Assembly: GCA_036526375.1 (NCBI GenBank)
Contig: DATCYP010000095.1
Coordinates: 2,133-66,132, forward strand
Direction of reading: 5' to 3'
DNA from: Gaiellaceae bacterium
GTDB lineage: Bacteria; Actinomycetota; Thermoleophilia; Gaiellales; Gaiellaceae
Length of the DNA stretch: 64,000 nucleotides
Positions 3,185 through 57,769 of the stretch are shown piece after piece (positions within the stretch are counted from its first letter, which is position 1; every line of letters begins with the position of its first letter). Position numbers and translations under genes: made by a program. The notes under the pieces are model-generated. The model was not told where the DNA came from. It worked only from the letters and a program-made list of their open reading frames with translations, and ran no database searches.

Positions 3185-4246
3185 TTAGAGGCCACGCGGG
3201 CGGGCCGCCCCGAACAGGCGGCCCGCCTCGGCCTTCACGAAGCCCATGTGCTCGTACATCGCCTCGAGCGTCGGCTCGCTCGCCCGGCGCGCCTTCTCGG
3301 CGCCGACCGCGAGCAGCCGCTGCAGCTCCCGCTCGTCGGCGCGCAGCTCACGGTAGCGCTCCTGGATCGGAGCGAGGAGCGCGACGACGGACTCGCCGAC
3401 GGCCTCCTTGAAGTCGCCGTAGCCGGAGCCGTCGAAGCGGCGCTCGAGCTCGGCGACCGGCTCGCCCGTCGCGACGGACATGATCTCGAGCAGGTTCGAG
3501 ATGCCCGCCTTCGCCTCGGGGTCGTGCCGGATCTCCTTCTCCGAGTCGGTGACCGCCGTCTTGAACTTCTTGCGGATCACGTCCGGCTCGTCGACCATCC
3601 GCACGACGCCCTGGGGCGCGCCCCGCGTCGTGGACATGAGCCGCTCCGGCTCCTGGAGGTTCTTGATCCGCGCGCCCTCCGCCGGATAGACGCCGCGCGG
3701 GATCGTGAACGTCTCGCCGTAGCGCTGGTTGAAGCGCTCCGCCACGTCACGGGTCAGCTCGAGATGCTGGCGCTGGTCGTCGCCGATCGGGACGATCTCC
3801 GTCTGGTAGAGCAGGATGTCGCCGGCCATCAGCACCGGATACGTGAAGAGCCCGGCCGAGACGAAGTCCTGTCCCTCGGACTTCTCCTTGAACTGCGTCA
3901 TCCGCCGCAGCTCGCCGAAGCTCGTCGCGGCGCTCAGCAGCCAGGCCGCCTCGGCATGGGCGACGACGTGACTCTGCGCGAAGACCGTCGAGCGCTCCGG
4001 GTCGAGTCCGGTCGCGAAGAGCATCGCCGCGCCTGCCAGCGTGTACTCGCGCAGCTCCGCCGGCTCGATCGGCGTCGTGATCGAGTGGAGGTCGACGATG
4101 CAGAAGAACGCCTCGCCCTCCTCTTGGGTCGCGACGTACTGGCGGTAGCCACCCGAGTAGTTGCCGAGCGTCTTGTCGCCCGTGGCTCGGATGCCGGAGA
4201 AGACGCGCGGCTTGGCGGGCTCGGGTGCGGGCTGGGCGTCGGCCAT
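3185..4246 (-). CDS. trpS: tryptophan--tRNA ligase
   Basis: 353 aa collinear with bacterial TrpRS (SGIRATGDKTLGNY, GELRRMTQFKEKS, VPIGDDQRQHLELTRD). The KMSKS position reads LMSTT. Confidence 0.9.
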   Translation of the reverse strand: MADAQPAPEPAKPRVFSGIRATGDKTLGNYSGGYRQYVATQEEGEAFFCIVDLHSITTPIEPAELREYTLAGAAMLFATGLDPERSTVFAQSHVVAHAEAAWLLSAATSFGELRRMTQFKEKSEGQDFVSAGLFTYPVLMAGDILLYQTEIVPIGDDQRQHLELTRDVAERFNQRYGETFTIPRGVYPAEGARIKNLQEPERLMSTTRGAPQGVVRMVDEPDVIRKKFKTAVTDSEKEIRHDPEAKAGISNLLEIMSVATGEPVAELERRFDGSGYGDFKEAVGESVVALLAPIQERYRELRADERELQRLLAVGAEKARRASEPTLEAMYEHMGFVKAEAGRLFGAARPRGL

Positions 4247-5325: not shown

Positions 5326-5328
5326 CAC

Positions 5329-7932: not shown

Positions 7933-9293
7933 CCGATCTCGAGGACATCGACTCCGGCGAGCTCCCCGCGCCGCCGCCTCCGCCGCTGCTGGGCGCGGTC
8001 GCGATCATCGGCTTCCCGAACGTCGGCAAGTCGACGCTCGTCAACCGGCTGACCGAGACGCGCGCGGCCGTCGTCCACGAGACCCCGGGCGTGACGCGCG
8101 ACCGGAAGGAGCTCGTCTGCGAGTGGACGGGGAAGCGCTTCGTCCTCGTCGACACCGGCGGCGTCGACATCGCCGACCCTGCGCCGCTGACGCGGGCGAT
8201 CGCACAGCAGGCGCGGGAGGCGGTCGGGGAGGCGGATCTCGTCCTCTTCGTCGTCGACGCGCGCGCCGGGGTGACGCCCGGGGACGAGGAGATCGCCCAG
8301 ATCCTGCGGGAGGCGCGCAAGCCGGTGCTCGTGCTCGCGAACAAGATCGACGACCCGAGCCAGGAGCCGTTCGCCCTCGAATTGCACCGCCTCGGGCTCG
8401 GCGACCCGATCCCGATCTCGGGACTGCACGGGACGGGCAGCGGCGACCTGCTCGACCGCATCGTCGAGGAGCTCGAGCGGCTGGCGCCGGCCGGGCGGCC
8501 CTCGCTTCCCGACGACGCGATCCGTGTCGCGATCCTCGGCCGGCCCAACGTCGGCAAGTCGAGCCTCGTCAACGCGCTGCTCGGGCGCGAGCGGCTGATC
8601 GTGAGCGAGATCCCGGGCACGACGCGGGATGCCGTCGACACCGTCCTCGAGCGCGGCGAGCGCACCTTCGTCCTCATCGACACCGCCGGCCTCCGGCGCA
8701 AGCGGCGGCACCGGCAGGGCGTCGAGTACTACTCCGAGCTCCGCGCGCTCGAGGCGGCCGAGCGGGCCGACGTCGCGCTCGTCCTGATCGACTCCTCGGA
8801 GGGGATCGTGGAGCAGGACATCGCCGTCGCGGACGTCTCCCGGCACGCCGACTGCTCGACGCTCGTCGTTCTCTCGAAGTGGGACGCGACAACGATCCGC
8901 GTCGAGGACGTCCGCGGCGAGCTGCGCCGGCGGCTCCGCCAGCGGCCGCCCTTCGTCGCCGTCTCCTCGCACACGGGACGCGGGCTCGAGCGGCTGCTCG
9001 ACGGCGTCGCCGAGCTGTTCGACCGGCACACGGCCCGGGTCCCGACGGCGGAGCTGAATCGCGCGTTCGCGGAGCTGCGCGAGGCGCGGCAGCCGCCGAG
9101 CGGCCCGCGAGGCCGCAGGCTCAACCTCCTTTACGGCGCGCAGATCCGGGTTCGGCCGCCCCGCTTTCGCGTCTTCGTCAACGACCCCGGGCTCGTCACG
9201 CGCGACTACGGCTATTGGGTCGAGAACCGGCTGCGGGAGCGTTTCGGCCTCGACGGCGTCCCGGTCTCGATCGACTTCGTGAAACGATCCTGA
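7929..9293 (+). CDS. der: ribosome biogenesis GTPase Der (EngA)
   Basis: Two GTPase domains ([18 protein letters not shown]) plus a KH-like C-terminus. GTG 7929 overlaps the plsC TGA. Confidence 0.9.
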
Positions 9294-9295
9294 CG

Positions 9296-10249
9296 ATGCG
9301 CTTCCTGGTGGTCGGTGCGGGCTCGTGGGGGACGGCGTTCACGGGCGTGCTGCTCGAGCGGGGCCACGACGTCGTGCTCGCGTGCCGCTCGCGGGAGCAG
9401 GCCGAGGCGATCGCGAGCACCGGCTGGAACCCTCGCTACCTGCAGGGCGTGAACCTCGGCGCGGCCGAAGCGGTGGCGCTCGCGGACGCCCCGGGCGACG
9501 TCGACGTGGTGGTCGCAGCCGTGCCGAGCCAGGCCTTTGCCGAGGTCGTCGAGGCGCTGAGGGGCGACGCGCCGGTCCTCAGCCTCGCGAAGGGACTCGA
9601 CCCCGAGACCGGCGAGCGTCTGTCCACGCGCGTCAGGGGCCGGTCGGTGGCGGTGCTCTCGGGCCCGAACATGGCGGAGGAGATCGCCGAGGGCCTGCCG
9701 ACGGCGGCGGTGATCGCGAGCGAGGACGGCTTCCTCGCGGGCCAGCTCCAGCACGCGCTGAACTCGAGCCTCTTCCGCGCCTACGTCAATCCGGACCTCG
9801 TCGGCGTCGAGCTGTGCGCGGCGGCGAAGAACGTGATCGCGCTCGCGGCCGGCGGCGTCGACGGGCTGGGCCTCGGCGACAACGCGAAGGCCTCCCTCAT
9901 CGCGCGCGGCCTCGCGGAGATGGCGCGGCTCGGGGAGGCGGCGGGCGCGCGCCCGGAGACGTTCGCGGGCCTCGCCGGGATCGGCGACCTGGTGGTGACG
10001 TGCTGGAGCCGCCACGGCCGCAACCGCCACGCGGGCGAGCTGATCGCGCAGGGGCTGACGCCCGACCGGGCCGTCGCGGAGATCGGCCAGACGGTGGAGG
10101 GCCTCACGACGGCCCCGATCCTGCGCGACCTCTCGCACAGGCTCGGCGTCGAGCTGCCGATCACGGAAGGCGTCTGCGCCGTCCTCTCCGGCCAGAGCCT
10201 CACCGACCTGGCCGCCGGGCTGATGGGCCGGGAACCGACGGAGGAGTGA
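9296..10249 (+). CDS. gpsA: NAD(P)H-dependent glycerol-3-phosphate dehydrogenase
   Basis: [14 protein letters not shown]..., [20 protein letters not shown] motifs. Confidence 0.9.
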
Positions 10250-10261
10250 GGCCGCGTTGGC

Positions 10262-10267
10262 TAGCCT
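10262..10267 (+). promoter_or_regulatory. -10-like TANNNT box (TAGCCT) for metK
   Basis: TAGCCT lies 7 nt before ATG 10275. Confidence 0.4.
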
Positions 10268-10274
10268 GCCGGTC

Positions 10275-11519
10275 ATGTCCAAGCGCGCGTTCTCCTTCAC
10301 GTCCGAGTCGGTCACCGAGGGCCATCCCGACAAGATGGCCGACCAGCTCTCCGACTCGGTGCTCGATGCCGTCCTGGCCGACGACCCAGAGGGGCGCGTC
10401 GCCTGCGAGACGCTGATCACGACCGGACTCGTCGTCGTCGCCGGCGAGATCACGACCGATACGTACGTGGACATCCCGCGCCTCGTCCGCGAGAAGATCC
10501 GCGAGATCGGGTACACGCGCGCGAAGTTCGGCTTCGACGCCGAGACGTGCGGTGTCGTCGTCGCGATCGACGAGCAGTCGCCCGACATCGCGCAGGGGGT
10601 CGACCGCTCCTACGAGCAGCAGCACGGCGACAGCGACCCACTCGACCGCGAAGGTGCGGGCGACCAGGGGATGATGTTCGGCTACGCGTCGAACGAGACG
10701 GACGAGCTGATGCCGCTGCCGATCATGCTGGCGCACCGGCTGGCGCGGCGGCTCGCAGAGGTGCGGAAGGCCGACGTGCTCCCGTACCTGCGCCCCGACG
10801 GGAAGACGCAGGTCACCGTCCGCTACGAGATCGACGAGCACGGCCGCCACCGGCCCGTGGAGATCGAGCGCGTGCTCATCTCGACGCAGCACCGCGACGG
10901 GCTCGATCCTGAGACGCTGCTCAAGCCCGACCTGATCGAGCACGTGATCGAGCCGATCCTGCCCAGGGATCTCTACGACCAGCGGCGGCTCGAGCACGAC
11001 CGCGACTTCGTCTACTGCAATCCGACCGGCAAGTTCGTGATCGGCGGGCCGATGGGGGACACCGGCCTGACGGGGCGGTAGATCATCGTCGACACGTACG
11101 GCGGCGCGGCTCCGCACGGCGGCGGTGCGTTCTCGGGCAAGGACCCGACGAAGGTCGACCGCTCGGCGGCCTACGCGGCGCGCTGGGTGGCGAAGAACGT
11201 CGTCGCGGCGGGCCTCGCCGAGCGCTGCCAGATCCAGGTCGCGTACGCGATCGGGGTGGCGCATCCGCTCTCGGTGCTCGTCGAGACGTTCGGAACCGAG
11301 GCGATCCCCGTGCCGCGGATCGAGGAGCTCGTCGGCGAGCACTTCGACCTGCGCCCGGCCGCGATCCTCCGCGACCTCGAGCTGCGCCGGCCGATCTACG
11401 CGAAGACCGCCGCCTACGGCCACTTCGGCCGCGAGGACGGCGACTTCACCTGGGAGCGGACCGACCGCGCCGAGGCGCTGCGCGCGGCGGCGGGGCTCGC
11501 CGAGCCTACGACGGTCTGA
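10275..11519 (+). pseudogene. metK: S-adenosylmethionine synthase interrupted by an in-frame TAG at 11079-11081
   Basis: One frame encodes a full MetK ([58 protein letters not shown]). The TAG sits where the invariant Lys belongs. Confidence 0.9.
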
Positions 11520-12195
11520 CGAACAGCCCGGCGGCGGCCTTCTCCGAGATCGCCCGCTCGCCGACCTTCTCGATCGCGACCGTGAACTGATCCGCGGCCG
11601 GCTCGGCCGCGCGCACGAGGATGCTCGTGCCCGGCACGAGACCCTGGTCGTAGAACCAGTGCAGGAGGTCGCCGTCGTGCTCCGCGAGGCGGACGATCGT
11701 GGCCCGCGTTCCGGCCGACAGCGTGGCGAGCGGCGCCAGCTCGGCATTCTCCGCCTGCTCCACCGCCGGATCGACGGGCCAGCCGTGCGGGCAGCGCTGC
11801 GGATGGCCCAGCTTGTCGTCGATCCGCTCGATCATCTCGTCGCTGAAGGTGTCGCCGAGCTCGTCGGCCCGTTCGTGGGACTCGTACCCGGTGTAGCCCA
11901 TGAAGTCGGTCAGGAGCCGCTCGATGATCCGGTGCTTGCGGACGACGCGCTCGGCGCGCTCGCGGCCCGTCTCGGTGAGGAGCGCCTCCTTCTTCTTGCC
12001 GCGCTCGATCAGCCCCTCCGCCTCGAGCCGCTTCAGCATCTCGCCGGCGGACGCGCGCGAGACGTGGAGCATCTCGGCCACGCGCGAGGCGAGGGGAGGG
12101 GAACCGGCGCCGTGCGGCGTGTACTCGCCGATCGGGAAGGCGAGGAAGTAGATCGTCTCGAGGTACTCGTCCACTGAGTGGCCGGCGGCAGGCAC
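11506..12195 (-). CDS. DtxR/MntR/IdeR-family metal-dependent transcriptional regulator with C-terminal FeoA/SH3-like domain
   Basis: 229 aa. [32 protein letters not shown] (HTH) and [10 protein letters not shown] motifs. GTG 12195; GTG 12174 is an alternative start. Confidence 0.85.
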
Positions 12196-12200
12196 GCAGC

Positions 12201-12206
12201 TATATT
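12201..12206 (+). promoter_or_regulatory. -10-like box (TATATT) for ZIP transporter; complement CAATAT may serve the regulator gene
   Basis: Only AT-rich hexamer in the 64-bp divergent spacer. Upstream of the palindrome and ATG 12260, and 6 nt from GTG 12195 on the other strand. Confidence 0.35.
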
Positions 12207-12221
12207 GCCCGCGAGCCTGCG

Positions 12222-12239
12222 TGTAAGGGCACCCTTACA
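12222..12239. promoter_or_regulatory. candidate metalloregulator operator: perfect inverted repeat TGTAAGGG-CA-CCCTTACA
   Basis: 8-2-8 perfect palindrome between the DtxR-family gene and the ZIP transporter gene. Confidence 0.55.
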
Positions 12240-12259
12240 AGGGCAGGCACCGACTGCTC

Positions 12260-13102
12260 ATGACGACGGCACACATCCTTCTGCTGGGGGCGATCGCGGG
12301 CGCGACGATCTTCCTCGGCCTGCCCGTGGCCCGCGTGAACACCGTCGCGCCGATCGTGCGCGCGTGCCTCTCGGCGCTCGCGACCGGGATCCTCCTCTTC
12401 CTCTTCTGGGACGTGCTCACCGGCGCGGTCGACCCGATCGACTCGGCGCTCCAGGCGCGGCACTGGGGGAGGTTCGCGTGGCTCTCGGGCGTCGGCGCGG
12501 CCGGCTTCGCCCTCGGCCTGATGGGGCTCGTCCACTACGCGGTCTGGATGCGTCGCCGCGCGAGTCGGCGGGTGACGACGATGGTCGGTCCGGGCGCCGC
12601 CGCGGTTGACGAGTTCACCCACCGCACGTGGCTCGACGATCTCACGCCGGGCAAGCAGCTTGCGCTTCTGATCGCGATCGGGATCGGCGTGCACAACTTC
12701 GGCGAGGGGCTGGCGATCGGCCAGGCGGCCGCGGCGGGCTCGATCAGCCTCGCGGTGACGCTGATCGTCGGCTTCGGGCTGCACAACGCGACCGAGGGAT
12801 TCGGCATCTGCGGTCCGCTGGCCGGGGAGGGGACGCGCCCGAGCTGGGGATTCCTCGGCGCCATGGGCCTGATCGGCGGCGGCCCCACGTTCCTCGGGAC
12901 GGTGCTCGGGCAGGCGTGGTCGAGCGAGGCGATGTCGGTCGTGTTCTTCGCGGTCGCCGCCGGCTCGATCCTCTACGTCGTGCAGGAGCTGATGGCGGTC
13001 AACCGCAGCTACGGCCGCACTGCGCTCGTCACCTGGCTCGTCGTCGCCGGCGTCCTGCTCGGCTTCGCGACCGACTTCGTGGTCAGCGCGGCCGGCGTCT
13101 AG
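12260..13102 (+). CDS. ZIP family metal (Zn/Fe/Mn) transporter
   Basis: 280 aa multi-pass membrane protein with HNFGEGLAIG and GLHNATEGFG motifs. Confidence 0.85.
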   Translation: MTTAHILLLGAIAGATIFLGLPVARVNTVAPIVRACLSALATGILLFLFWDVLTGAVDPIDSALQARHWGRFAWLSGVGAAGFALGLMGLVHYAVWMRRRASRRVTTMVGPGAAAVDEFTHRTWLDDLTPGKQLALLIAIGIGVHNFGEGLAIGQAAAAGSISLAVTLIVGFGLHNATEGFGICGPLAGEGTRPSWGFLGAMGLIGGGPTFLGTVLGQAWSSEAMSVVFFAVAAGSILYVVQELMAVNRSYGRTALVTWLVVAGVLLGFATDFVVSAAGV

Positions 13103-24276: not shown

Positions 24277-25511
24277 GCTCGGCCGTCACGCCGTTCGCCT
24301 CGATCGAGGAGGCCGTCGAGGACATCCGGAACGGGAAGATGGTGGTCGTCGTCGACGATCCCGAGCGTGAGAACGAAGGGGATCTCGTCGTCGCCGCCCG
24401 GTTCGCGACGCCCGAGGCAGTCAACTTCATGGCGACGCACGCGCGTGGGCTGATCTGCCTCTGCCTGACCGGCGAGCGCTGCGAGCAGCTCGGTCTGCCG
24501 CAGATGACGCAGCGGAACGAGGCGCGTCTCGGCACCGCCTTCACCGTCTCGGTCGAAGCCCGCGAGGGCGTGACCACCGGGATCTCGGCGGCGGACCGCG
24601 CGCACACGATCCACGTCGCGATCGACCCGGCCTCGACGCCGCACGACCTCGTCCAGCCCGGCCACGTCTTCCCGCTGCGCGCCCGCGACGGCGGCGTCCT
24701 GGTCCGCGCCGGCCAGACGGAGGCGGCCGTCGACCTCGCCCGCCTCGCCGGTCTCGTTCCGGCCGGCGTGGTCTGCGAGATCATGAACGAGGACGGGACG
24801 ATGGCCCGCGTCCCCGACCTCGTCCCGTACTGCGAGCGGCACGGACTGCGGATGATCACCGTCGCCGACCTGATCGAGTACCGGCGCCGGACGGAGAAGC
24901 TCGTCGAGCGCGTCGTCACGGTCCAGCTGCCGACGGAGTTCGGGCTCTTCAGCGCGACCGCCTTCCGCGAGACGCTCACCGGGCGCGAGCACGTCGCCCT
25001 CGTCATGGGCGAGATCGACGAGGACGTGCTCGTCCGCGTCCACTCCGAGTGCCTCACCGGCGACGTCTTCCACTCGCTCCGCTGCGACTGCGGCGAGCAG
25101 CTCGAGGCGGCGCTCGCCGCGATCGCCGCCGAGGGGCGCGGCGTTCTCCTCTACATGGCGCAGGAGGGGCGCGGCATCGGGCTCCTCAACAAGCTCAAGG
25201 CATACGAGCTACAGGAGCAGGGACTCGACACGGTCGACGCGAACCTCGCGCTCGGCTTCGCCGCGGACGAGCGCGAGTGGGGGATCGGCAACCAGATCCT
25301 CGCCGAGCTCGGCATCACGACCATGCGGCTGCTGACGAACAACCCGAAGAAGGTCTCCGGCGTCGAGGCGTACGGACTGAGGGTGACCGAGCAGGTGCCG
25401 ATCGAGATGCCGCCCCGTCCCGAAAACGTTCGCTATCTGGCCGCCAAGCGGGATAAGCTCGGGCACAAGTTGCACCACCAGGATCTCAAGTTCGAGTCGG
25501 AGGGCGAATGA
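24273..25511 (+). CDS. ribBA: bifunctional 3,4-dihydroxy-2-butanone-4-phosphate synthase / GTP cyclohydrolase II
   Basis: ENEGDLV, RVHSECLTGDVF and CDCG motifs. Confidence 0.95.
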   Translation: MSSAVTPFASIEEAVEDIRNGKMVVVVDDPERENEGDLVVAARFATPEAVNFMATHARGLICLCLTGERCEQLGLPQMTQRNEARLGTAFTVSVEAREGVTTGISAADRAHTIHVAIDPASTPHDLVQPGHVFPLRARDGGVLVRAGQTEAAVDLARLAGLVPAGVVCEIMNEDGTMARVPDLVPYCERHGLRMITVADLIEYRRRTEKLVERVVTVQLPTEFGLFSATAFRETLTGREHVALVMGEIDEDVLVRVHSECLTGDVFHSLRCDCGEQLEAALAAIAAEGRGVLLYMAQEGRGIGLLNKLKAYELQEQGLDTVDANLALGFAADEREWGIGNQILAELGITTMRLLTNNPKKVSGVEAYGLRVTEQVPIEMPPRPENVRYLAAKRDKLGHKLHHQDLKFESEGE

Positions 25512-26230
25512 GCACGACAGGAGGGTTCTGGCCGGGCGAAGCGCACCCGGCTGTCGAGGAGGAGGACGCACAGGAGCCGGCCGCGGCCGCCGAGGTCCCC
25601 GGGTGGCCGCAGCCACACGAGGAGGCGCCGGAGGCCGACGCCGACGCTCAGCCTGCGGCCGCAGCGGTGACCGAGGAGGAGTCGGAGCCGGAAGCCGAGG
25701 AGGAGGTGCCGGAGGTCGAGCCTGCGGGACACGCTCCCGGCGAGCTCGACGTCCCCGACGGCATCGCCGTCCTCGAGGGCTCCCCGTCCGGCGCGGACCG
25801 CACGGTCGGCATCGTCGTCTCGCGCTTCAACGGCGAGATCTCGAACCGGCTCCTCGAGTCGGCGCTCGAGGCCCTCGGCGCGGCCGGCGTCTCCGAGGAG
25901 AGGATCACCGTGATGCCCGTGCCCGGCGCGTTCGAGCTGCCGATCGGCGCGATGGCGCTGGCGAAGACGCGCCGCTACTCGTGCGTCGTGGCCCTCGGCT
26001 GCGTCGTCCGGGGCGAGACCGCGCACTTCGACTACGTCGCGGGCGAGGCGGCGTCGGGGCTCCAGCTCGCCGGCCTCGAGACGGGCGTGCCTGTCGCGTT
26101 CGGCGTGCTCACGGTGGACACCGCCGAGCAGGCCGAGGAGCGCGTCGAGAAGGGCGCGGACGCGGCGCGCGCGGCGCTCGAGATGGCAGACCTCTTCTCG
26201 CAGGTACGGCAGCAGGCAAAGAGCGGCTAG
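25508..26230 (+). CDS. ribH: 6,7-dimethyl-8-ribityllumazine synthase with ~85-aa acidic N-terminal extension
   Basis: Core is GIVVSRFNGEIS...VPGAFELP...HFDYV. ATGA overlap with ribBA. No ATG/GTG/TTG in the 25 codons before the core. Confidence 0.85.
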   Translation: MSTTGGFWPGEAHPAVEEEDAQEPAAAAEVPGWPQPHEEAPEADADAQPAAAAVTEEESEPEAEEEVPEVEPAGHAPGELDVPDGIAVLEGSPSGADRTVGIVVSRFNGEISNRLLESALEALGAAGVSEERITVMPVPGAFELPIGAMALAKTRRYSCVVALGCVVRGETAHFDYVAGEAASGLQLAGLETGVPVAFGVLTVDTAEQAEERVEKGADAARAALEMADLFSQVRQQAKSG

Positions 26231-26245
26231 GCGTCAGTCCTCGGC

Positions 26246-37268: not shown

Positions 37269-38270
37269 ATGAGAGCCAAGATCGCCATCGCGCTCGGGAT
37301 CGTGTACGTCGTCTGGGGATCGACGTATCTTGCGATCGCCGTCGCCGACCGGACGCTGCCGCCGCTGCTCATGCTCGCCGTGCGGTTCGGGCTCGCCGGT
37401 GGGCTCCTCTACGCGTGGTCCGCCTGGCGCGGCGACGTCCGCGCCGCGCGGCCGGGACGGCGTGAATGGACCTCCGCGGCGGTCGTCGGCGGGCTGCTCC
37501 TCTTCGTCGACACCGGCGGCATCGCCTGGGCCGAGCAGCGCGTCGCCTCGGGCCTGACCGCGCTGCTCGTCGCGACCGTGCCGCTGTTCACGGCGCTGCT
37601 CGACCGCACGTTCTTCGGCATTCGGCTCTCTCTCGGCGGACTGGCCGGAATCGCCGCGGGCCTGCTTGGCGTCGCGCTGCTGGTCGGCCAGAGCGGACAC
37701 GTCGATCCGGTCGGCGCCGCCGTCATCCTCGGCGCCGCGGTCGCGTGGGCGGCCGGCTCGGCCTACGGGCGCGTCGCGCCGCTGCCGCGGCCGCCCTTCC
37801 TCTCGGCGGCGATGCAGATGCTCTGCGCCGCGGCGTTCCTCGCCGTCGCCGGATCGGCGATGGGCGAACTCGGCCGCGTGCATCCGGCTGCGATCTCGGC
37901 GGGCTCGGCCGCTGCGTTCGCCTTCCTCGTCGTCTTCGGCTCGATCGTCGCCTTCACCGCGTACGGCTGGCTGCTGCGGAGCGGAGCGTCCAGCGTCCTC
38001 GTCTCGACGTACGCCTACGTCAATCCGGCGGTGGCCGTCGTGCTCGGTTGGGCGCTCGCCGGCGAAGCCGTCGGGGGCCGCGAGCTCGCCGCAGGCGCGG
38101 TGATCGTCGGCTCGGTCGGGATGCTCGTCCTCGCCCGCAAGCCGCACGAGCGTCGCGAGGCGGAGCCGACGCCGGAGACGGTCGAGCCGTACCTGCGGGA
38201 GAAGGAGGCACAGGAAGGCCCCGTCCAGCCGGTGCCGCGACTGGCCGACCTCCGCCGCATGGCGCCCTGA
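37269..38270 (+). CDS. EamA/DMT family transporter
   Basis: Ten hydrophobic segments and duplicated EamA-type halves; 333 aa. Confidence 0.8.
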   Translation: MRAKIAIALGIVYVVWGSTYLAIAVADRTLPPLLMLAVRFGLAGGLLYAWSAWRGDVRAARPGRREWTSAAVVGGLLLFVDTGGIAWAEQRVASGLTALLVATVPLFTALLDRTFFGIRLSLGGLAGIAAGLLGVALLVGQSGHVDPVGAAVILGAAVAWAAGSAYGRVAPLPRPPFLSAAMQMLCAAAFLAVAGSAMGELGRVHPAAISAGSAAAFAFLVVFGSIVAFTAYGWLLRSGASSVLVSTYAYVNPAVAVVLGWALAGEAVGGRELAAGAVIVGSVGMLVLARKPHERREAEPTPETVEPYLREKEAQEGPVQPVPRLADLRRMAP

Positions 38271-40936: not shown

Positions 40937-40959
40937 CCGCGGACTCCGACCTCGCGCAG

Positions 40960-41625
40960 CTGATCGACGAGCTCCCGCCGGAGCTGGCGCAGCATGTCTT
41001 CACGCATACGTCGTGGGCGAGCGAGCGTAGCGCCTCCTACGAGCGGCTCGAGTTCCTCGGCGACAGCGTGCTCGAGCTGGCCGTCGCGCACGCGCTCTTC
41101 GTCCGCCATCCGGATTTCTCCGAGGGGAAGCTCGCGAAGGTGCGCTCCCACGTCGTCTCGCGCGCGACGTGCGCGGAGGTGGCGCGCGAGCTCGAGCTCG
41201 GGCGCAGGCTCGTGGAGCACGCGGATTTCTCGCAGACGGACGAGGAGACCGAGCGGCTCTCGCGGAACCGCAACGTCCTCGCGGCCGTCATCGAGGCTGC
41301 CCTGGGCGCGCTCTTCCTCGAGCACGGCTTCGCCGCGATCGAGGAGGCGGTCGTCGCAGCGTTCTCGAAGCAGATCGAGCACGCGCTCACGACGCGCGTC
41401 GACCACAAGACCGACCTGCAGGAGCTGCTCGCCCGCACCGGGCGCCACGTGACGTACACGGAGATCTCCGTCGAAGGGCCGCCGCACGAGCGGCGCTTCA
41501 CGTGCGCCGCGATCATCGGTGGCGAGGAGCTTGGACGGGGCGACGGCCGGACGAAGAAGGCCGCCGAGCAGGAGGCCGCCCGCGAGGCGCTCTCGAAGCT
41601 CGACAGCGGCGAGGGCGAGGAGTAG
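40960..41625 (+). CDS. rnc: ribonuclease III (start codon unresolved; CTG 40960 used provisionally)
   Basis: ERLEFLGDSVLELAV signature and a dsRBD C-terminus. The signature begins upstream of the first canonical start (GTG 41068). Confidence 0.85.
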   Translation: MIDELPPELAQHVFTHTSWASERSASYERLEFLGDSVLELAVAHALFVRHPDFSEGKLAKVRSHVVSRATCAEVARELELGRRLVEHADFSQTDEETERLSRNRNVLAAVIEAALGALFLEHGFAAIEEAVVAAFSKQIEHALTTRVDHKTDLQELLARTGRHVTYTEISVEGPPHERRFTCAAIIGGEELGRGDGRTKKAAEQEAAREALSKLDSGEGEE

Positions 41626-42436: not shown

Positions 42437-42487
42437 CGTCGCCCGTCTCACGGCTGCGCCGGGATTTCTGGCATCCTGGGCGGCCTC

Positions 42488-47984: not shown

Positions 47985-49166
47985 ATGGACGAACGCCTCG
48001 AGCGCTACGCAGAGCTCGCCGTCCGGGTCGGCGCCAACGTGCAGCCGGGTCAGGAGGTCTTCCTCTTCGCCGCGGTCGAGCATCACGATCTCGCTCGGGC
48101 CCTCACGCGCCAGGCCTACCGCGCCGGCGCCTCCTACGTGAACGTCCTCTACAGCGACATGCACGCGCGCAAGGCGATGATCGAGCTCGGCCCGGACGAG
48201 GCCCTCACCTATGCGCCCGGGTGGCTGAAGGACTTCGTCACCTCGATCGCCGGCAACGCGTTGATCGCCACGACCGGCGATCCGGAGCCGGATCTGCTGG
48301 CCGACCTCGACGGCGAGCGCGTCGGTCGAGCCGTACCGCAGGAGATCGTGCAGATCCGGATGCAGCAGATGGGCGAGAACTCCGTCAACTGGGTCGGCGT
48401 CGGTGCACCGGGTGAGGAGTGGGCGCGCCAGGTGTTCGGAGAGCCGGACGTCGAGCGCCTGTGGGAGGCCGTCGCGTACTGCATGCGCCTCGACGAGCCG
48501 GACCCCGCAGCCGCCTGGAGCGAGCACCTCGCACGGCTCGAGGCGCGAACGACGCAGCTGAACGAGCTCAAGGCCGACGCGCTCCGCTATCGCGGCCCCG
48601 GTACCGACCTGACGGTGGGATTGCTCGCGAACGCCCGCTGGGAGTCGGGCTCCTCCACGACCTCGGGCGGGATCACCTACGTCGCGAACATGCCGACGGA
48701 GGAGCTCTTCACCTCGCCGGACGCGCGCCGCACCGAAGGGACGATCCGCCAGACGCTGCCGCTGCCTCTCTCCGGCCAGGTCGTGCGCAATCTGGAGCTG
48801 ACGTTCGAGGGGGGGCGGGCCGTCCGGGTCGAGGCCGAGAGCGGAGCCGACCTCGTTCGCAGCCACTTCGCGACGATCGAGAACGCCGACCGCCTCGGCG
48901 AGGTGGCGCTCGTGACGAAGGAATCCCGCGTCGGTCAGACGGGGCTGGTCTTCAACGACCCGCTGTACGACGAGAACGCGACCTGCCACATGGCGTACGG
49001 AGCCGCGTTTCCGTTCCTGCTCGACGGCGAGCCCGGCGAGGGATTCAACGTGGCGAACATGCACGTCGACTTCATGGTCGGCGGACCCGAGCTCGAGGTG
49101 GACGCGGTGATGCCGGACGGAGCCGAGGTCCCGCTGATTCGCAACGAGGAGTGGCAGCTGGCGTGA
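47985..49166 (+). CDS. M29 family aminopeptidase (AmpS/PepS/aminopeptidase T-like), copy 1
   Basis: 393 aa. ANMPTEELFT, GEVALV, DENATCHMAYG and HVDFMVG metal-site motifs. Confidence 0.85.
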   Translation: MDERLERYAELAVRVGANVQPGQEVFLFAAVEHHDLARALTRQAYRAGASYVNVLYSDMHARKAMIELGPDEALTYAPGWLKDFVTSIAGNALIATTGDPEPDLLADLDGERVGRAVPQEIVQIRMQQMGENSVNWVGVGAPGEEWARQVFGEPDVERLWEAVAYCMRLDEPDPAAAWSEHLARLEARTTQLNELKADALRYRGPGTDLTVGLLANARWESGSSTTSGGITYVANMPTEELFTSPDARRTEGTIRQTLPLPLSGQVVRNLELTFEGGRAVRVEAESGADLVRSHFATIENADRLGEVALVTKESRVGQTGLVFNDPLYDENATCHMAYGAAFPFLLDGEPGEGFNVANMHVDFMVGGPELEVDAVMPDGAEVPLIRNEEWQLA

Positions 49167-50365
49167 GCGTCGACGGCGACGACAACGGCAGGAGGCTCGA
49201 GCAGTACGCGGAGCTGGCCGTGCGTGTCGGCGCGAACGTACAGCCCGGGCAGGAGGTCTTCATCCAGCCGATGGTCGAGCACACCGAGCTCGCGCGGGCG
49301 CTCGTGCGGCAGGCCTACGAGGCGGGCGCCTCCTACGTGCACGTGGTCTACCGGGACGAGCACGTGAGGCGCGCGCGGATCGAACTCGGCCCCGACTCCG
49401 CGCTCACGTACTCGCCAGACTGGGAGATCGCGCTCACGGAGGCGGAGTCGGGCAACGCATCGATCGGGACGATGGGCAAGCCGGATCCGCAGCTGCTCGC
49501 AGACCTCGACGGAGAGCGCATCGGCCGTGCGGTCCAGGTGCAGATCGCGGAGATCGTGCAACGGCAGCATCGCGAGAGCAGCGTCAACTGGTGCGGCATC
49601 GGAGCGCCGAACGCGGGCTGGGCGAAGCAGGTCTTCGGCGAGCCCGACGTCGAGCGGCTGTGGGACAAGGTCGCCTTCTGCATGCGGCTCGACGAGCCGG
49701 ACCCGGTCGCCGCCTGGCGCGAGCACATCGCCCGGCTCGACGCCCGCGCCGAGACGCTCACGGCGCTCCGGCCGGACGCGCTCCGGTACCGCGGCCCCGG
49801 CACCGACCTCACGGTCGGCCTCCTGCCGACCGCGCGCTGGGGGAGCGCCCGCTTCCGCACCTCCGGCGGGATCGACTACGTCGCGAACATGCCGACGGAG
49901 GAGATCTTCACCACTCCCGACTCCCGGCGCGCGGAGGGGACGATCCGGTCGAGGAAGCCGCTCTCCCTCAACGGCCAGATCATCCGCGGCCTGCAGTTCA
50001 CGTTCGAGGAGGGGCGGATCGTCGGCGTCGACGCCGAGCAGGGCGCCGATCTCGTCCGCAGTCAGATCGCCACGAACGAGAACGCCGACCGGCTGGGCGA
50101 GCTCGCGCTCGTCACGAGCGAGTCGCGCGTCGGACAGTCGGGGACGCTCTTCTTCGACACGCTCTTCGACGAGAACGCGACCTGCCACATCGCCTACGGG
50201 ATGGGGCTGCCGTACGCGTTCGACGGCGAGCCCGACGAGCGCACGAACGCGTGCAACGTCCACGTCGACTTCATGGTCGGGGCGCCCGAGCTCGAGGTGG
50301 ACGCGGTGCTCGCCGACGGGAGCGAGGTGCCGCTGATCCGGAACGAGGAATGGCAGCTGGCGTAA
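49163..50365 (+). CDS. M29 family aminopeptidase, copy 2
   Basis: Paralog of copy 1 with the same motifs intact. GTGA overlap with copy 1. Confidence 0.85.
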   Translation: MSVDGDDNGRRLEQYAELAVRVGANVQPGQEVFIQPMVEHTELARALVRQAYEAGASYVHVVYRDEHVRRARIELGPDSALTYSPDWEIALTEAESGNASIGTMGKPDPQLLADLDGERIGRAVQVQIAEIVQRQHRESSVNWCGIGAPNAGWAKQVFGEPDVERLWDKVAFCMRLDEPDPVAAWREHIARLDARAETLTALRPDALRYRGPGTDLTVGLLPTARWGSARFRTSGGIDYVANMPTEEIFTTPDSRRAEGTIRSRKPLSLNGQIIRGLQFTFEEGRIVGVDAEQGADLVRSQIATNENADRLGELALVTSESRVGQSGTLFFDTLFDENATCHIAYGMGLPYAFDGEPDERTNACNVHVDFMVGAPELEVDAVLADGSEVPLIRNEEWQLA

Positions 50366-51549
50366 CCGACGAGCGGCTCGAGCGCTATGCCGAGCTCGCC
50401 GTTCGGATCGGTGCGAACGTGCAGCCGGGCCAGGAGGTGTTCATCGGCGGGATGGTCGAGCACGCGGAGTTGATCCGGGCGCTCGCGCGGCAGTCGTACC
50501 TGGCGGATGCCTCCTACGTCCACGTCGCGTACGACGACCAGCACGTCCATCGCGCGAGGATCGAGCTCGGGCCGGACGAGATGCTCTCGCACTCGCCCGA
50601 GTGGTTGAAGACCCTGGCCGAGGAGAGCAGCGGACACGCTCAGCTCGGGACGATGGGGAATCCCGAGCCGGAGCTGCTCGCCGACCTCGACGGCGATCGT
50701 GTCAGCCGCGCGATCCCGCTGGAGGCCCTGGAGATCTTCCAGCGCCAGCTCGCGGATCGCACGGTCAACTGGTGCGGCGTCGGCGCGCCGAACGAGGGCT
50801 GGGCGGCGCAGGTCTTCGGGGAGCCCGACGTCGAGCGGCTCTGGGAGCTCGTCGCCTTCTGCTTCCGCCTCGACGAGCCCGATCCCGTCGCCGCCTGGAC
50901 CGAGCATCTCGACCGGCTCGAGGCGCGCGGCGCCGCCCTGACCGCGCTCCGGCCCGACGCGATCCGCTACCGCGGTCCCGGCACCGATCTCACGGTCGGC
51001 CTGCTCCCGACCGCACGCTGGGTCAGCGCCCGCTTCCGCACGGTGTCGGACATCGAGTACGTCGCGAACATGCCGACGGAGGAGATCTTCACGACGCCCG
51101 ATCCGCGTCGCGCAGAGGGGACGATCCGCTCGAGCCTGCCGCTCTCGCTCGGCGGACAGCTGATCCGGGGCCTCGAGTTCACGTTCTCGGACGGACGGAT
51201 CACCGGCGTCGAGGCCGAGACCGGCGCCGACCTCGTGCGCGGGCACATGGCGACGATCGAGAACGCCGACCGCCTGGGCGAGCTCGCTCTCGTCACCAAC
51301 GAGTCGCGGGTCGGCCAGACCGGCACGCTCTTCTACAACACGCTCTTCGACGAGAACGCGACGTGCCACATCGCCTACGGGTTCGGGATCCCCACCGCGT
51401 TCGACGGTGAGCCCGACGAGGCGATGAACGTCTCGAACATGCACGTCGACTTCATGGTCGGCAGCCCGGAGCTCGAGGTCGACGCGCTGCTCGAGGACGG
51501 GACGGCCGTGCCGCTCGTCCGCGAGGAGACCTGGCAGCTCGAGCGGTGA
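50350..51549 (+). CDS. M29 family aminopeptidase, copy 3
   Basis: Paralog with the same motifs intact. ATG 50350 lies inside the last codons of copy 2 (16-nt overlap). Confidence 0.85.
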   Translation: MAAGVTDERLERYAELAVRIGANVQPGQEVFIGGMVEHAELIRALARQSYLADASYVHVAYDDQHVHRARIELGPDEMLSHSPEWLKTLAEESSGHAQLGTMGNPEPELLADLDGDRVSRAIPLEALEIFQRQLADRTVNWCGVGAPNEGWAAQVFGEPDVERLWELVAFCFRLDEPDPVAAWTEHLDRLEARGAALTALRPDAIRYRGPGTDLTVGLLPTARWVSARFRTVSDIEYVANMPTEEIFTTPDPRRAEGTIRSSLPLSLGGQLIRGLEFTFSDGRITGVEAETGADLVRGHMATIENADRLGELALVTNESRVGQTGTLFYNTLFDENATCHIAYGFGIPTAFDGEPDEAMNVSNMHVDFMVGSPELEVDALLEDGTAVPLVREETWQLER

Positions 51550-52529: not shown

Positions 52530-52591
52530 GAGGCGCATGCCGACGCGCACCGGCGGCGGAGGGCCGGGCGCTGCGACGTCCGCCCGGATAA

Positions 52592-52609
52592 CCGGCAGGA
52601 CGCTGCCGG
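52592..52609. terminator. GC hairpin CCGGCAG-GACG-CTGCCGG between convergent ftsY and lipoprotein genes
   Basis: Perfect 7-bp stem with a 4-nt loop. No U-tract, so function is tentative. Confidence 0.3.
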
Positions 52610-52750
52610 CACACGCCGGAACGATTCGGAGCGGACCTCGTCAGCGGACGAAGCCGGGCGGTGCCGACAGGGGCGTCGTTGCGCCGGCGGCAATCGGAAT
52701 CGGCGCCCTGTACGGCCCCAATGACGTGTCGGCGCGTCGCGGGTCGTACC

Positions 52751-53092
52751 TCATGCGCCCGGCGCCTTCACGACGAGCGGCACCCCGCCCCGGCCCGAGA
52801 GCGGAAATCTCGCCGGACGGCTGGAGACGTTGTGCAGCGCGAACGCGACCCTCAACTCGTCTCGGGCTGGACCGGGCATGGCGACGGTGGCGGTGCGACG
52901 GATGTGCCCTCCGAGGATGAGGCGGCTGGAACCGACCCGTCGCGCGGAGGCCAGCGCTCCGGCAGCATGCACCGGCCCGCGATGAGCGGCCCGGTGGCTG
53001 GCTACGCACGCCGACAGCACGAGTGCGATCGCGACAAGCACAGCGACACCGCCGAAACCTTCACGTGACTGAAGGTACGACGCCGCGCGCAC
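52751..53092 (-). CDS. putative lipoprotein (possibly truncated or frameshifted at its 3' end)
   Basis: GTG 53092 gives MRAASYLQSREGFGGVAVLVAIALVLSAC (lipobox LSAC). An adjacent frame stays protein-like down to 52641. Confidence 0.45.
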   Translation of the reverse strand: MRAASYLQSREGFGGVAVLVAIALVLSACVASHRAAHRGPVHAAGALASARRVGSSRLILGGHIRRTATVAMPGPARDELRVAFALHNVSSRPARFPLSGRGGVPLVVKAPGA

Positions 53093-53127
53093 CGACGTCG
53101 CGCGATTGGGCCTGCGCTTCCCGCCGG

Positions 53128-53133
53128 TACCCT
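53128..53133 (+). promoter_or_regulatory. -10-like TANNNT box (TACCCT) for ffh
   Basis: Lies 7 nt before ATG 53141. Confidence 0.4.
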
Positions 53134-53140
53134 GCGGCGG

Positions 53141-56141: not shown

Positions 56142-56783
56142 GTGCGCATCGACGTCTTCACCCTCGTTCCCCACGCCTATGCCTGGCTGACCGAGCAGCG
56201 GCCGGTGGCGAGCGTCCTCGGCATGAATCTCGAGCTGCGGCTCTTCAACTACCGCGACTCGACGCCGCTCCGCGCGGGCCAGGTCGACGACGAGCCGTAC
56301 GGCGGCGGAGCGGGAATGGTGCTGCGCGTGGACGTCGTCGCAGCGGCGCTCGACGCCGTCTACGCGGCGGATCCGCCCGGGCCGGTGATCGCGCTCTCGC
56401 CGAAGGGCCGGCAGCTGACGCAGGCCGTCGTGGAGGAGCTCGCGGAACTGCCTGCGCTGACGCTCCTCTCCTCCCGCTTCGAGGGCTTCGACGAGCGAAT
56501 CGTCGAGCACCTCGCGACGGACGCGATCTCGGTCGGGCCGTACGTCCTCTCGAACGGCGACCTGCCCGCGATGATCGTCCTCGACGCGGTCGCGCGCCGG
56601 CTGCCCGGCGCGCTCGCCGAGGGATCCGGGGAGCTCGAGAGCTTCTCAGCCGAGCTCGGCGGCGGGCTCGAGTACCCGCACTACACGCGGCCGGCCGACT
56701 TCCGGGGCTGGTCCGTGCCGGACGTGTTGCTCTCGGGCGACCATGGGCGGGTCGACGCCTGGCGTCGGGAGCACGTGCGATGA
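56142..56783 (+). CDS. trmD: tRNA (guanine37-N1)-methyltransferase
   Basis: DDEPYGGGAGMV, SRFEGFDERI and LEYPHYTRP motifs. Confidence 0.9.
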   Translation: MRIDVFTLVPHAYAWLTEQRPVASVLGMNLELRLFNYRDSTPLRAGQVDDEPYGGGAGMVLRVDVVAAALDAVYAADPPGPVIALSPKGRQLTQAVVEELAELPALTLLSSRFEGFDERIVEHLATDAISVGPYVLSNGDLPAMIVLDAVARRLPGALAEGSGELESFSAELGGGLEYPHYTRPADFRGWSVPDVLLSGDHGRVDAWRREHVR

Positions 56784-57769
56784 GCGACGACTTCGGCCGC
56801 TACCGCCCCGAGCTGGGCGACGAGGGCGAGAAGGACGAGGGGGACGAGGGGGACGCCGGCCGCGACGCTCCGTTCGGCTGGCCCGAGCACGAGCCGGGCC
56901 GGCGCGGCGAGGCGCCGGGCGGCTGGCTCGACGACGAGCCGGAATCCGGCAGGGCGCCGGGCGGCTGGCTCGACGACGACGCGCAGACCGACAGCGAAAG
57001 CGCGGGAGACTGGCCCACTCGGGGCGACACGTGGCAGCCGGAGTACGGCCGGACCTACCGCGACTACGGGTATGCCGACAGGGACGCGGTGCTCTCGGAC
57101 GAGGCGGGCTACGACGCTCGTCGCAGCCGCGATCCGCTCGCCCGTCTCTTCCCGGGCCTGCCGCGTGGGGTGCGGGTCACCCTCGACTGGATCCTCACGA
57201 TCGCGGGCGCGATCCTGATCGTGCTCGCGCTCAAGCAGTGGGTGGTCAACCCGTATCGCATCCCCTCGTCCTCGATGGAGCCGACGCTGAACTGCGCCAA
57301 GGGCCTGAGCCCGAGCCAGAGCGGCTGTCTCGGCCAGTCGAGCGACCGCGTGCTCGCGTGCCGCATCTGCCTCGACTTCCGCAATCCCTCGCGCGGCGAC
57401 ATCGTCGTCTTCAACACGCCGCGCGCGGCCGCGAACAAGTGCGGTGAGGGCGGCACGTTCGTGAAGCGCGTGATCGGCCTGCCGGGTGACTGGATCAGGG
57501 AAGACAAGGACGGCTTCATCTGGGTCAAGGACCCCGGCGAGAAGAGGTTCGTCAAGCTCAGGGAGCCGTACATCTCCAGGGTCCGACGGCTTGCGGACAG
57601 CAGCCACTTCGGCATGAAGTGGCACGTCAAGAAGGACAGCTACTTCATGATGGGCGACAACCGCGCCCAGTCGTGCGACTCGCGCACGTGGGGCTCGGTG
57701 CCCCGCAACAAGCTGATCGGGATCGTGTTCTTCGTCTACTGGCCGCCGGACAGAATCGGCTTCCGGTAG
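56780..57769 (+). CDS. lepB: signal peptidase I with ~130-aa acidic cytoplasmic N-terminal extension
   Basis: IPSSSMEPTL, GDIVVF, KRVIGLPGD and GDNRAQSCDSR boxes after one TM segment. ATGA overlap with trmD. Confidence 0.9.
   Translation: MSDDFGRYRPELGDEGEKDEGDEGDAGRDAPFGWPEHEPGRRGEAPGGWLDDEPESGRAPGGWLDDDAQTDSESAGDWPTRGDTWQPEYGRTYRDYGYADRDAVLSDEAGYDARRSRDPLARLFPGLPRGVRVTLDWILTIAGAILIVLALKQWVVNPYRIPSSSMEPTLNCAKGLSPSQSGCLGQSSDRVLACRICLDFRNPSRGDIVVFNTPRAAANKCGEGGTFVKRVIGLPGDWIREDKDGFIWVKDPGEKRFVKLREPYISRVRRLADSSHFGMKWHVKKDSYFMMGDNRAQSCDSRTWGSVPRNKLIGIVFFVYWPPDRIGFR
56911..56979 (+). repeat. 42-bp tandem duplication inside lepB (27-nt identical cores at 56911-56937 and 56953-56979)
   Basis: GGCGCCGGGCGGCTGGCTCGACGACGA occurs twice, 42 nt apart, encoding APGGWLDDE / APGGWLDDD. 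Confidence 0.9.

Follow-up and report, generated by a model that had tools for sequence, protein, structure and literature searches.

Is a TAG codon that interrupts an essential gene, at the very position of its conserved lysine, a signal that the cell decodes, a fresh loss of function, or a blemish in an assembled sequence? The question is posed by metK, the gene for S-adenosylmethionine synthase, in a 64-kb stretch of Gaiellaceae DNA with a G+C content of 72.7% ("the window" below means the whole of this stretch, all of which was analyzed). A sequence-only reading of the same DNA had drawn attention to the codon and had left three explanations side by side: a sequence error, a very recent nonsense allele, and readthrough or recoding.

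The metK reading frame and its internal stop

The earlier reading had described a complete metK with one in-frame TAG, and this description holds: a single frame runs through the gene and carries the three domains of the enzyme family. The parts of the frame are given below in window coordinates.

10275-11519, forward strand: metK (S-adenosylmethionine synthase), from ATG 10275 to TGA 11517-11519, 413-414 sense codons plus one internal TAG
10275-11078, forward strand: part before the TAG, 268 aa, N-terminal and central domains (PF00438 and PF02772, both full length)
11079-11081, forward strand: in-frame TAG, metK codon 269, at the Lys codon of GRK(I/V)IVDTYGG, corresponding to E. coli K245
11082-11516, forward strand: part after the TAG, 145 aa, C-terminal domain (PF02773)

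In the Pfam comparison, the first part matches S-AdoMet_synt_N (E 3e-43) and S-AdoMet_synt_M (E 4.5e-43), and the second matches S-AdoMet_synt_C (E 4e-59), such that PF00438, PF02772, and PF02773 are all essentially full length, as expected of a MetK/MAT protein. What departs from the family is the frame itself, which is broken by TAG 11079-11081 where GRK(I/V)IVDTYGG should have its Lys. Alignment with the solved MetK structures 3rv2 and 5h9u (E ~1e-158) puts the TAG opposite the conserved motif Lys, the position to which it had already been assigned. Please note that in E. coli mature numbering the replaced residue is K245, not K265; K265 and K269 lie further downstream. We take this Lys to be catalytic and part of the basic active-site cluster that binds triphosphate.

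Both parts of the gene keep a coding-type GC3, as had been remarked from the letters alone, with values of 0.94 before and 0.97 after the TAG. Among the 3,726 single-base changes that are possible in metK, 101 create a stop codon. The first in-frame ATG, GTG, or TTG stands 35 codons beyond the TAG, and separate translation of the C-terminal piece is therefore unlikely; nor was a ribosome-binding site for such a piece found after the TAG. The RNA 3' of the stop folds no better than shuffled sequence (z = -0.82), which gives no indication of a stimulatory structure.

The start of metK and its neighbors

Three features frame the gene.

9296-10249, forward strand: gpsA (glycerol-3-phosphate dehydrogenase), upstream neighbor of metK, in conserved synteny
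10262-10267, forward strand: TAGCCT, a -10-like box of the TANNNT type, 7 nt before metK ATG 10275
11506-12195, reverse strand: gene for a DtxR/IdeR-type iron-dependent repressor, convergent with metK and overlapping its 3' end by 14 nt

The TAGCCT box had been pointed out previously, and it is indeed found 7 nt upstream of the start. It is part of a longer motif, TTGGCTAGCCTGCCG (window 10257-10275), which contains the palindrome GGCTAGCC in addition to the TANNNT-type box and is identical upstream of metK in two loci (L021 and L024) of a sister species that are ~88% identical overall. No Shine-Dalgarno sequence was found in the 25-nt gap between gpsA and metK, and a simple scan returned neither a sigma-70 consensus promoter nor an intrinsic terminator around metK. 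The metK mRNA may be leaderless, an arrangement with which the box, as a putative promoter element, is compatible. Gene callers working on related genomes have chosen an alternative start, TTG 10257, which gives a product of 420 aa.

The gene order leading up to metK is trpS/tyrS, aroF, aroA, cmk, plsC, der, gpsA, metK, and then the convergent DtxR/IdeR repressor gene. Since the next gene is convergent, a premature stop in metK would have no polar effect on it. Beyond ideR come a ZIP transporter gene, priA, def, fmt, rsmB, rpe, the rib operon, and rpmB; further along are recG, coaD, plsX, acpP, rnc, smc, ftsY, and ffh, and the last stretch holds rpsP, rimM, trmD, lepB, rplS, rnhB, and dprA. 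These are core housekeeping genes and, by Pfam, all of them other than metK look intact. With metK as the sole gene to contain an internal stop among intact housekeeping neighbors, the locus does not lie in a decaying region.

Other features were noticed elsewhere in the window. One concerns a start codon.

40937-41625, forward strand: rnc (RNase III), corresponding to ~3247-3935 in the related loci L011-L020

In this gene, the first canonical start is GTG 41068, yet ~43 N-terminal residues, including the catalytic signature ERLEFLGD, are encoded before it. No stop interrupts the frame from a point within acpP onward, no ATG, GTG, or TTG precedes ERLEFLGD in it, and the same pattern is seen in 10/10 related Gaiellaceae loci (L011-L020). 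Gene calls for rnc in these relatives are mostly truncated (157-185 aa), with one of 212 aa and none at all in L018. The conserved candidate starts are CTG 40960 and ATC 40963, within ...GCG CAG CTG ATC GAC..., and this looks like a lineage-wide non-canonical start codon rather than an error. Elsewhere, three tandem paralogues of the M29 aminopeptidase family occupy 47985-51549 on the forward strand (393, 400, and 399 aa, each with a full-length PF02073). RibH (lumazine synthase, 25508-26230) has an acidic, Ala/Glu/Pro-rich N-terminal extension of ~95 aa, and the signal peptidase (56780-57769) has one of ~130 aa. Of the 211 aa of ribosomal protein L19 (57830-58465), the L19 domain takes up just residues 3-112. 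The 611-bp gap between ftsY and ffh (52530-53140) has no confident gene call and no Rfam match, and its longest ORF (52661-53068) is without a Pfam match.

How is TAG used in this genome?

If TAG were read as an amino acid throughout the genome, it should be avoided as a terminator and should appear within many frames. Neither is seen. Among 73 ORF calls based on codon usage, the stops are TGA in 35, TAG in 30, and TAA in 8; expressed for called genes, TAG terminates ~29 of ~72 (~40%). In aroF, ribH, priA, and others, the TAG falls at the expected end of the Pfam domain.

The window was also scanned for internal stops, defined as stops with 50 stop-free coding-type codons on each side. This flagged gene junctions, one site antisense to smc, the metK TAG, and nothing else. 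The same-frame TAG junctions are real ones, namely aroF/aroA at 5326, ribH/rpmB at 26231, and the junction between a methyltransferase gene and a small ORF before smc at 42437. Since just one of ~72 genes, metK, is interrupted by an in-frame stop, a reassignment of TAG throughout the genome is excluded.

A dedicated decoding apparatus was likewise sought across the 64-kb window. It contains no tRNA, with a CUA anticodon or any other; no pyl genes (pylS, pylB, pylC, pylD, or tRNA-Pyl(CUA)); and no methylamine methyltransferase genes of the MttB/MtbB/MtmB type. A second metK was not found in the same 64 kb. An Rfam scan of the whole window gave no match at the gathering threshold, hence no riboswitch or recoding element, and a literature search returned no paper connecting Gaiellales with pyrrolysine.

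The same locus in relatives

The sequence-only reading had proposed that orthologous loci be compared in related genomes. We have made this comparison, and the codon at this position is AAG in L001, from a very close relative, and in L021-L024, from a sister species. The closest database match to the protein (P0001) is an intact MetK of 420 aa (TTG start) from an independent Hunan farmland-soil assembly. The two proteins agree at each of the 413 sense codons and part only at codon 269, where P0001 has Lys. The 4.7-kb contig that encodes it (L001) aligns to window 8318-13020 at 99.38% identity, without gaps and with 29 differences. At 11079, L001 has A, giving the codon AAG; that AAG to TAG is a one-base change, as had been supposed, can thus be read directly from the nearest relative. 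Loci L021-L024 come from four samples, are ~88-90% identical to the window, and have the synteny trpS-aroF-aroA-cmk-plsC-der-gpsA-metK-ideR-ZIP...priA-def-fmt, the same as in the window. The order gpsA-metK-ideR...priA-def-fmt, which marks the orthologous position, is common to L001 and L021-L024.

Within metK, the window differs from L001 by this one nonsense change and 9 synonymous changes, without a single missense change; 7 of the 9 come after the TAG, and the post-TAG part of metK has therefore not drifted. The T/A difference at 11079 is the sole A:T-to-T:A transversion among the 29. Another of the 29, in gpsA, is the sole dinucleotide change: codon 89 (window 9560-9561) is AGG (Arg) here versus CCG (Pro) in L001.

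A decaying pseudogene would be expected to have several lesions, missense drift, or a lesion shared by a clade. Here there is one lesion, a missense-to-synonymous count of 0:9 against a 99.4%-identical sequence, and no trace of the stop in relatives, all of which agrees with the earlier view that this is not an old pseudogene. Judged by synteny and substitution pattern, the window metK is the orthologous metK of its lineage, under strong purifying selection, and the lesion arose after the window strain had parted from the nearest known strain, from which it diverges by 0.6%.

Database searches with the protein fit this picture. All 120 homologues among the matches listed are full-length three-domain MetK proteins of 412-438 aa, and none is truncated at this codon; the 119 other than P0001 are 91-95% identical, and some are labelled Gaiellaceae. 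The truncated products that the window would encode, 268 aa from the ATG and 274 aa from the TTG, are absent from ~15 billion proteins and from a gene-position index, collections that do not contain the record of the window itself. A homologue search with MetK residues 121-268 returned fragments only, none ending at GLTGR. Exact look-up of the window IdeR and GpsA led to two short contigs of a Jiangxi farmland assembly (99.4-99.6% identity), which span 9180-10426 and 11391-12492 and so lie on either side of the TAG codon.

Stops at the same codon in other genomes

How often is this lysine codon a stop elsewhere? A degenerate-pattern scan for G-L-T-G-R-stop-x-I-V-D-T-Y-G-G was run over 185,579 species-representative genomes and 241 million metagenome records. 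Two of the genomes have TAG at this codon.

L002, 4600-4640, reverse strand: TAG at the metK Lys codon, Verrucomicrobiia metagenome-assembled genome (MAG)
L003, 858-898, reverse strand: TAG at the metK Lys codon, Pseudonocardiaceae MAG

Apart from this stop, the metK genes of L002 and L003 are intact, and their DNA sequences show them to be clearly independent. Both MAGs belong to one shared series of third-party soil assemblies (isolate names SMAG_U..., MEGAHIT-style k141 contigs), which may indicate that single-base errors are unusually frequent in that resource.

The metagenome records yielded five TAR stops at the codon, three TAG (L004, L005, and L008) and two TAA (L006 and L007), each a single stop in an otherwise conserved metK. 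The stop codon tracks the local Lys codon, with AAG giving TAG and AAA giving TAA: contig G+C is 58-69% for the metagenome TAG cases (58-70% for the TAG cases overall, with L002 and L003 included) and ~37% for the TAA cases. For L006, the contig name records a coverage of 2.03x. No tRNA was found near any of these seven other same-codon stops. All are unrelated singletons, with no inherited, diverging clade sharing the stop. Random substitution or error would be expected to give both features, the lack of kinship among the singletons and the dependence of the stop on the local Lys codon; UAG-specific recoding would be expected to give neither.

In round figures, a stop at the metK Lys codon occurs in about 1 in 100,000 public genomes (~1e-5). 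At ~1e-5 per path, a nonsense-interrupted metK would be found in roughly 0.1% of public genomes. Figures of ~1e-5 per codon, or ~0.1% per gene, are probably within the usual background of internal-stop pseudogene calls in MAGs.

Broken metK frames of another kind are found in organisms related to that of the window. On long contigs from ENA assemblies, many metK ORFs are broken in frameshift fashion and end in out-of-frame tails (e.g., ...TRPGSS), a sign that frameshift-type errors are present in these assemblies. Loci L011 and L018 offer a parallel in their truncated plsX, L018 also in its lack of an rnc call.

P0122, P0130, P0161, P0190, P0211, P0235, P0240, P0241: truncated metK ORFs of relatives, on contigs of 30-464 kb

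Because frameshift-broken metK is common on these long contigs, a metK broken by assembly error is a known background.

What is the most likely explanation?

The analysis shows that one base in metK is altered, that the alteration is peculiar to this sequence, and that purifying selection acts on a gene and a neighborhood that are intact in every other respect. We consider it probable (about 0.62) that position 11079 does not show a functional genotype, its T being instead an error of the consensus or a rare, dead-end variant. The T would be a sporadic A-to-T substitution in the assembled consensus. Sequencing or assembly may have introduced it, as is typical when soil metagenomes are assembled at low coverage; alternatively, the assembler may have retained a variant that was rare and either non-viable or unfixed. 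The TAG would then not be decoded; the living population would have AAG (Lys) at this codon and would make normal full-length MetK from this gene. Two points should be kept in mind when weighing an error. The rest of the 64 kb is without frameshifts or other nonsense codons, so that the assembly is not obviously error-prone, and we know of no platform for which A-to-T substitution is a classic systematic error.

As to the three initial explanations, error and very recent nonsense allele both fit the evidence, and readthrough or recoding is disfavored. A genuine loss-of-function allele, that is, AAG to TAG in a real cell line that leaves a 268-aa fragment lacking the C-terminal domain and the catalytic Lys, strikes us as rather unlikely, albeit the main rival. 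The T is present in the assembled sequence, the assembly around it is clean, and the 0.6% strain-level polymorphism in the population suggests an assembler that was resolving real variants. Natural inactivation of metK is known in Rickettsia, where a SAM transporter of the drug/metabolite family compensates (PMC1779305, PMC3104491), and the window has a gene for an EamA (drug/metabolite) family transporter at 37269-38270. However, metK is essential and E. coli is unable to take up SAM (PMC3104491); a cell with a null allele would therefore depend on a second metK or on uptake of SAM, unless the DNA came from dead cells or was relic DNA in soil. No second copy exists in the 64-kb window, where metK is the single syntenic ortholog of a GC-rich lineage with a dense set of housekeeping genes; the EamA gene is also present in relatives and so is not a specific compensation; and the allele, which is accompanied by neither further lesions nor missense drift, was met in none of the other assemblies searched.

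Programmed decoding of the UAG, whether by a suppressor tRNA (CUA), by insertion of pyrrolysine, or by efficient near-cognate tRNA-Lys readthrough, would give a full-length active MetK and could be regulatory. The stop does fall exactly on a Lys codon, pyrrolysine is a lysine derivative, metK is otherwise perfectly conserved on both sides of the TAG, and unrelated bacteria supply five more metK genes (L002, L003, L004, L005, and L008) that are otherwise intact and have TAG at the same codon. We nevertheless regard such decoding as very improbable, because TAG is a normal stop here, ending ~29/~72 genes of the window where their domains should end; because there is no CUA tRNA in the window, no tRNA near the other cases, no pyl or methylamine methyltransferase gene in the 64 kb, and no RNA structure past the TAG that betters shuffled sequence; because the other cases are unrelated singletons without sign of inheritance, of which the AT-rich L006 and L007 have TAA, as random AAA-to-TAA change predicts; and because the allele is in no other public assembly searched, and the relatives at 99.4% and 88% have AAG. 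The link between Gaiellales and pyrrolysine is also missing from the papers searched, and a bulky pyrrolysine at the triphosphate-binding catalytic Lys would, in our judgment, be implausible. Slimmer still is the chance that site-specific decoding of UAG as Lys or a Lys derivative has arisen repeatedly in unrelated lineages, where it might, for instance, throttle SAM synthesis at the level of translation, a reading that would take in the Gaiellaceae window, the Verrucomicrobiia and Pseudonocardiaceae MAGs, and three metagenome contigs, several of them soil MAGs. Hardly credible at all is a split enzyme, in which an active MetK is put together from the 268-aa N-terminal fragment and a C-terminal fragment with a translation start of its own. 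Both parts do keep their coding character and intact Pfam domains. Against this, the 35 codons after the stop offer no ATG, GTG, or TTG and no ribosome-binding site, neither fragment would contain the catalytic Lys or the IIVDTYGG...GAFSGK segment, and MetK of the relatives is not split.

What does this mean for annotation?

Were the TAG decoded, an essential enzyme of an actinobacterial lineage that has been little studied would provide a new example of site-specific recoding. What has been observed points away from decoding and toward a lone base difference that makes an essential gene look pseudogenic in a metagenome assembly; nothing in the case calls for a new mechanism. Its practical value is that of a quality flag. 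We recommend that annotators record this metK as probably intact, note a suspected sequence error in it, and not treat the function as lost. The case also supplies a rough measure of such events, a stop at one metK codon in ~1 in 100,000 public genomes.

Comparison with known systems

Reassignment of TAG as a sense codon, which is known from some phages and uncultivated bacteria, resembles the present case in that an in-frame TAG occurs in a functional-looking gene. It differs in scale, since the window has an internal TAG in 1 of ~72 genes and ~40% of its genes end at TAG.

Pyrrolysine decoding through pylTSBCD is similar in having an in-frame UAG in the gene of a conserved enzyme, and in the present case this is at a position usually occupied by Lys. 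The resemblance ends there. The window is without pyl genes, a CUA tRNA, and methylamine methyltransferases; TAG is a frequent functional stop; and the UAG is not conserved in the lineage as it would be among the orthologs of a pyrrolysine protein, the relatives at 99.4% and 88% both having AAG.

The decay of metK in Rickettsia offers an interrupted metK frame in a natural bacterial genome (PMC1779305). There, the split or degraded gene is offset by RP076, the "sam" SAM transporter of the drug/metabolite family (PMC3104491). Rickettsia live obligately inside host cells, whose SAM is available to them; their genome is reduced, and metK is degraded in several of their lineages. The organism of the window, in contrast, belongs to a GC-rich soil lineage, and its single lesion is not in the 99.4% or 88% relatives and is accompanied by no relaxation of selection.

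A fourth comparison is with the assembly or consensus single-base errors of MAGs that lead to "internal stop" pseudogene calls. One difference should be mentioned: the window shows no other error of this type. The likenesses are one substitution in an otherwise intact essential gene, unique to one assembly while near-identical sequences are intact, and the recurrence of similar singletons, at ~1e-5 per genome, in unrelated MAGs and low-coverage contigs.
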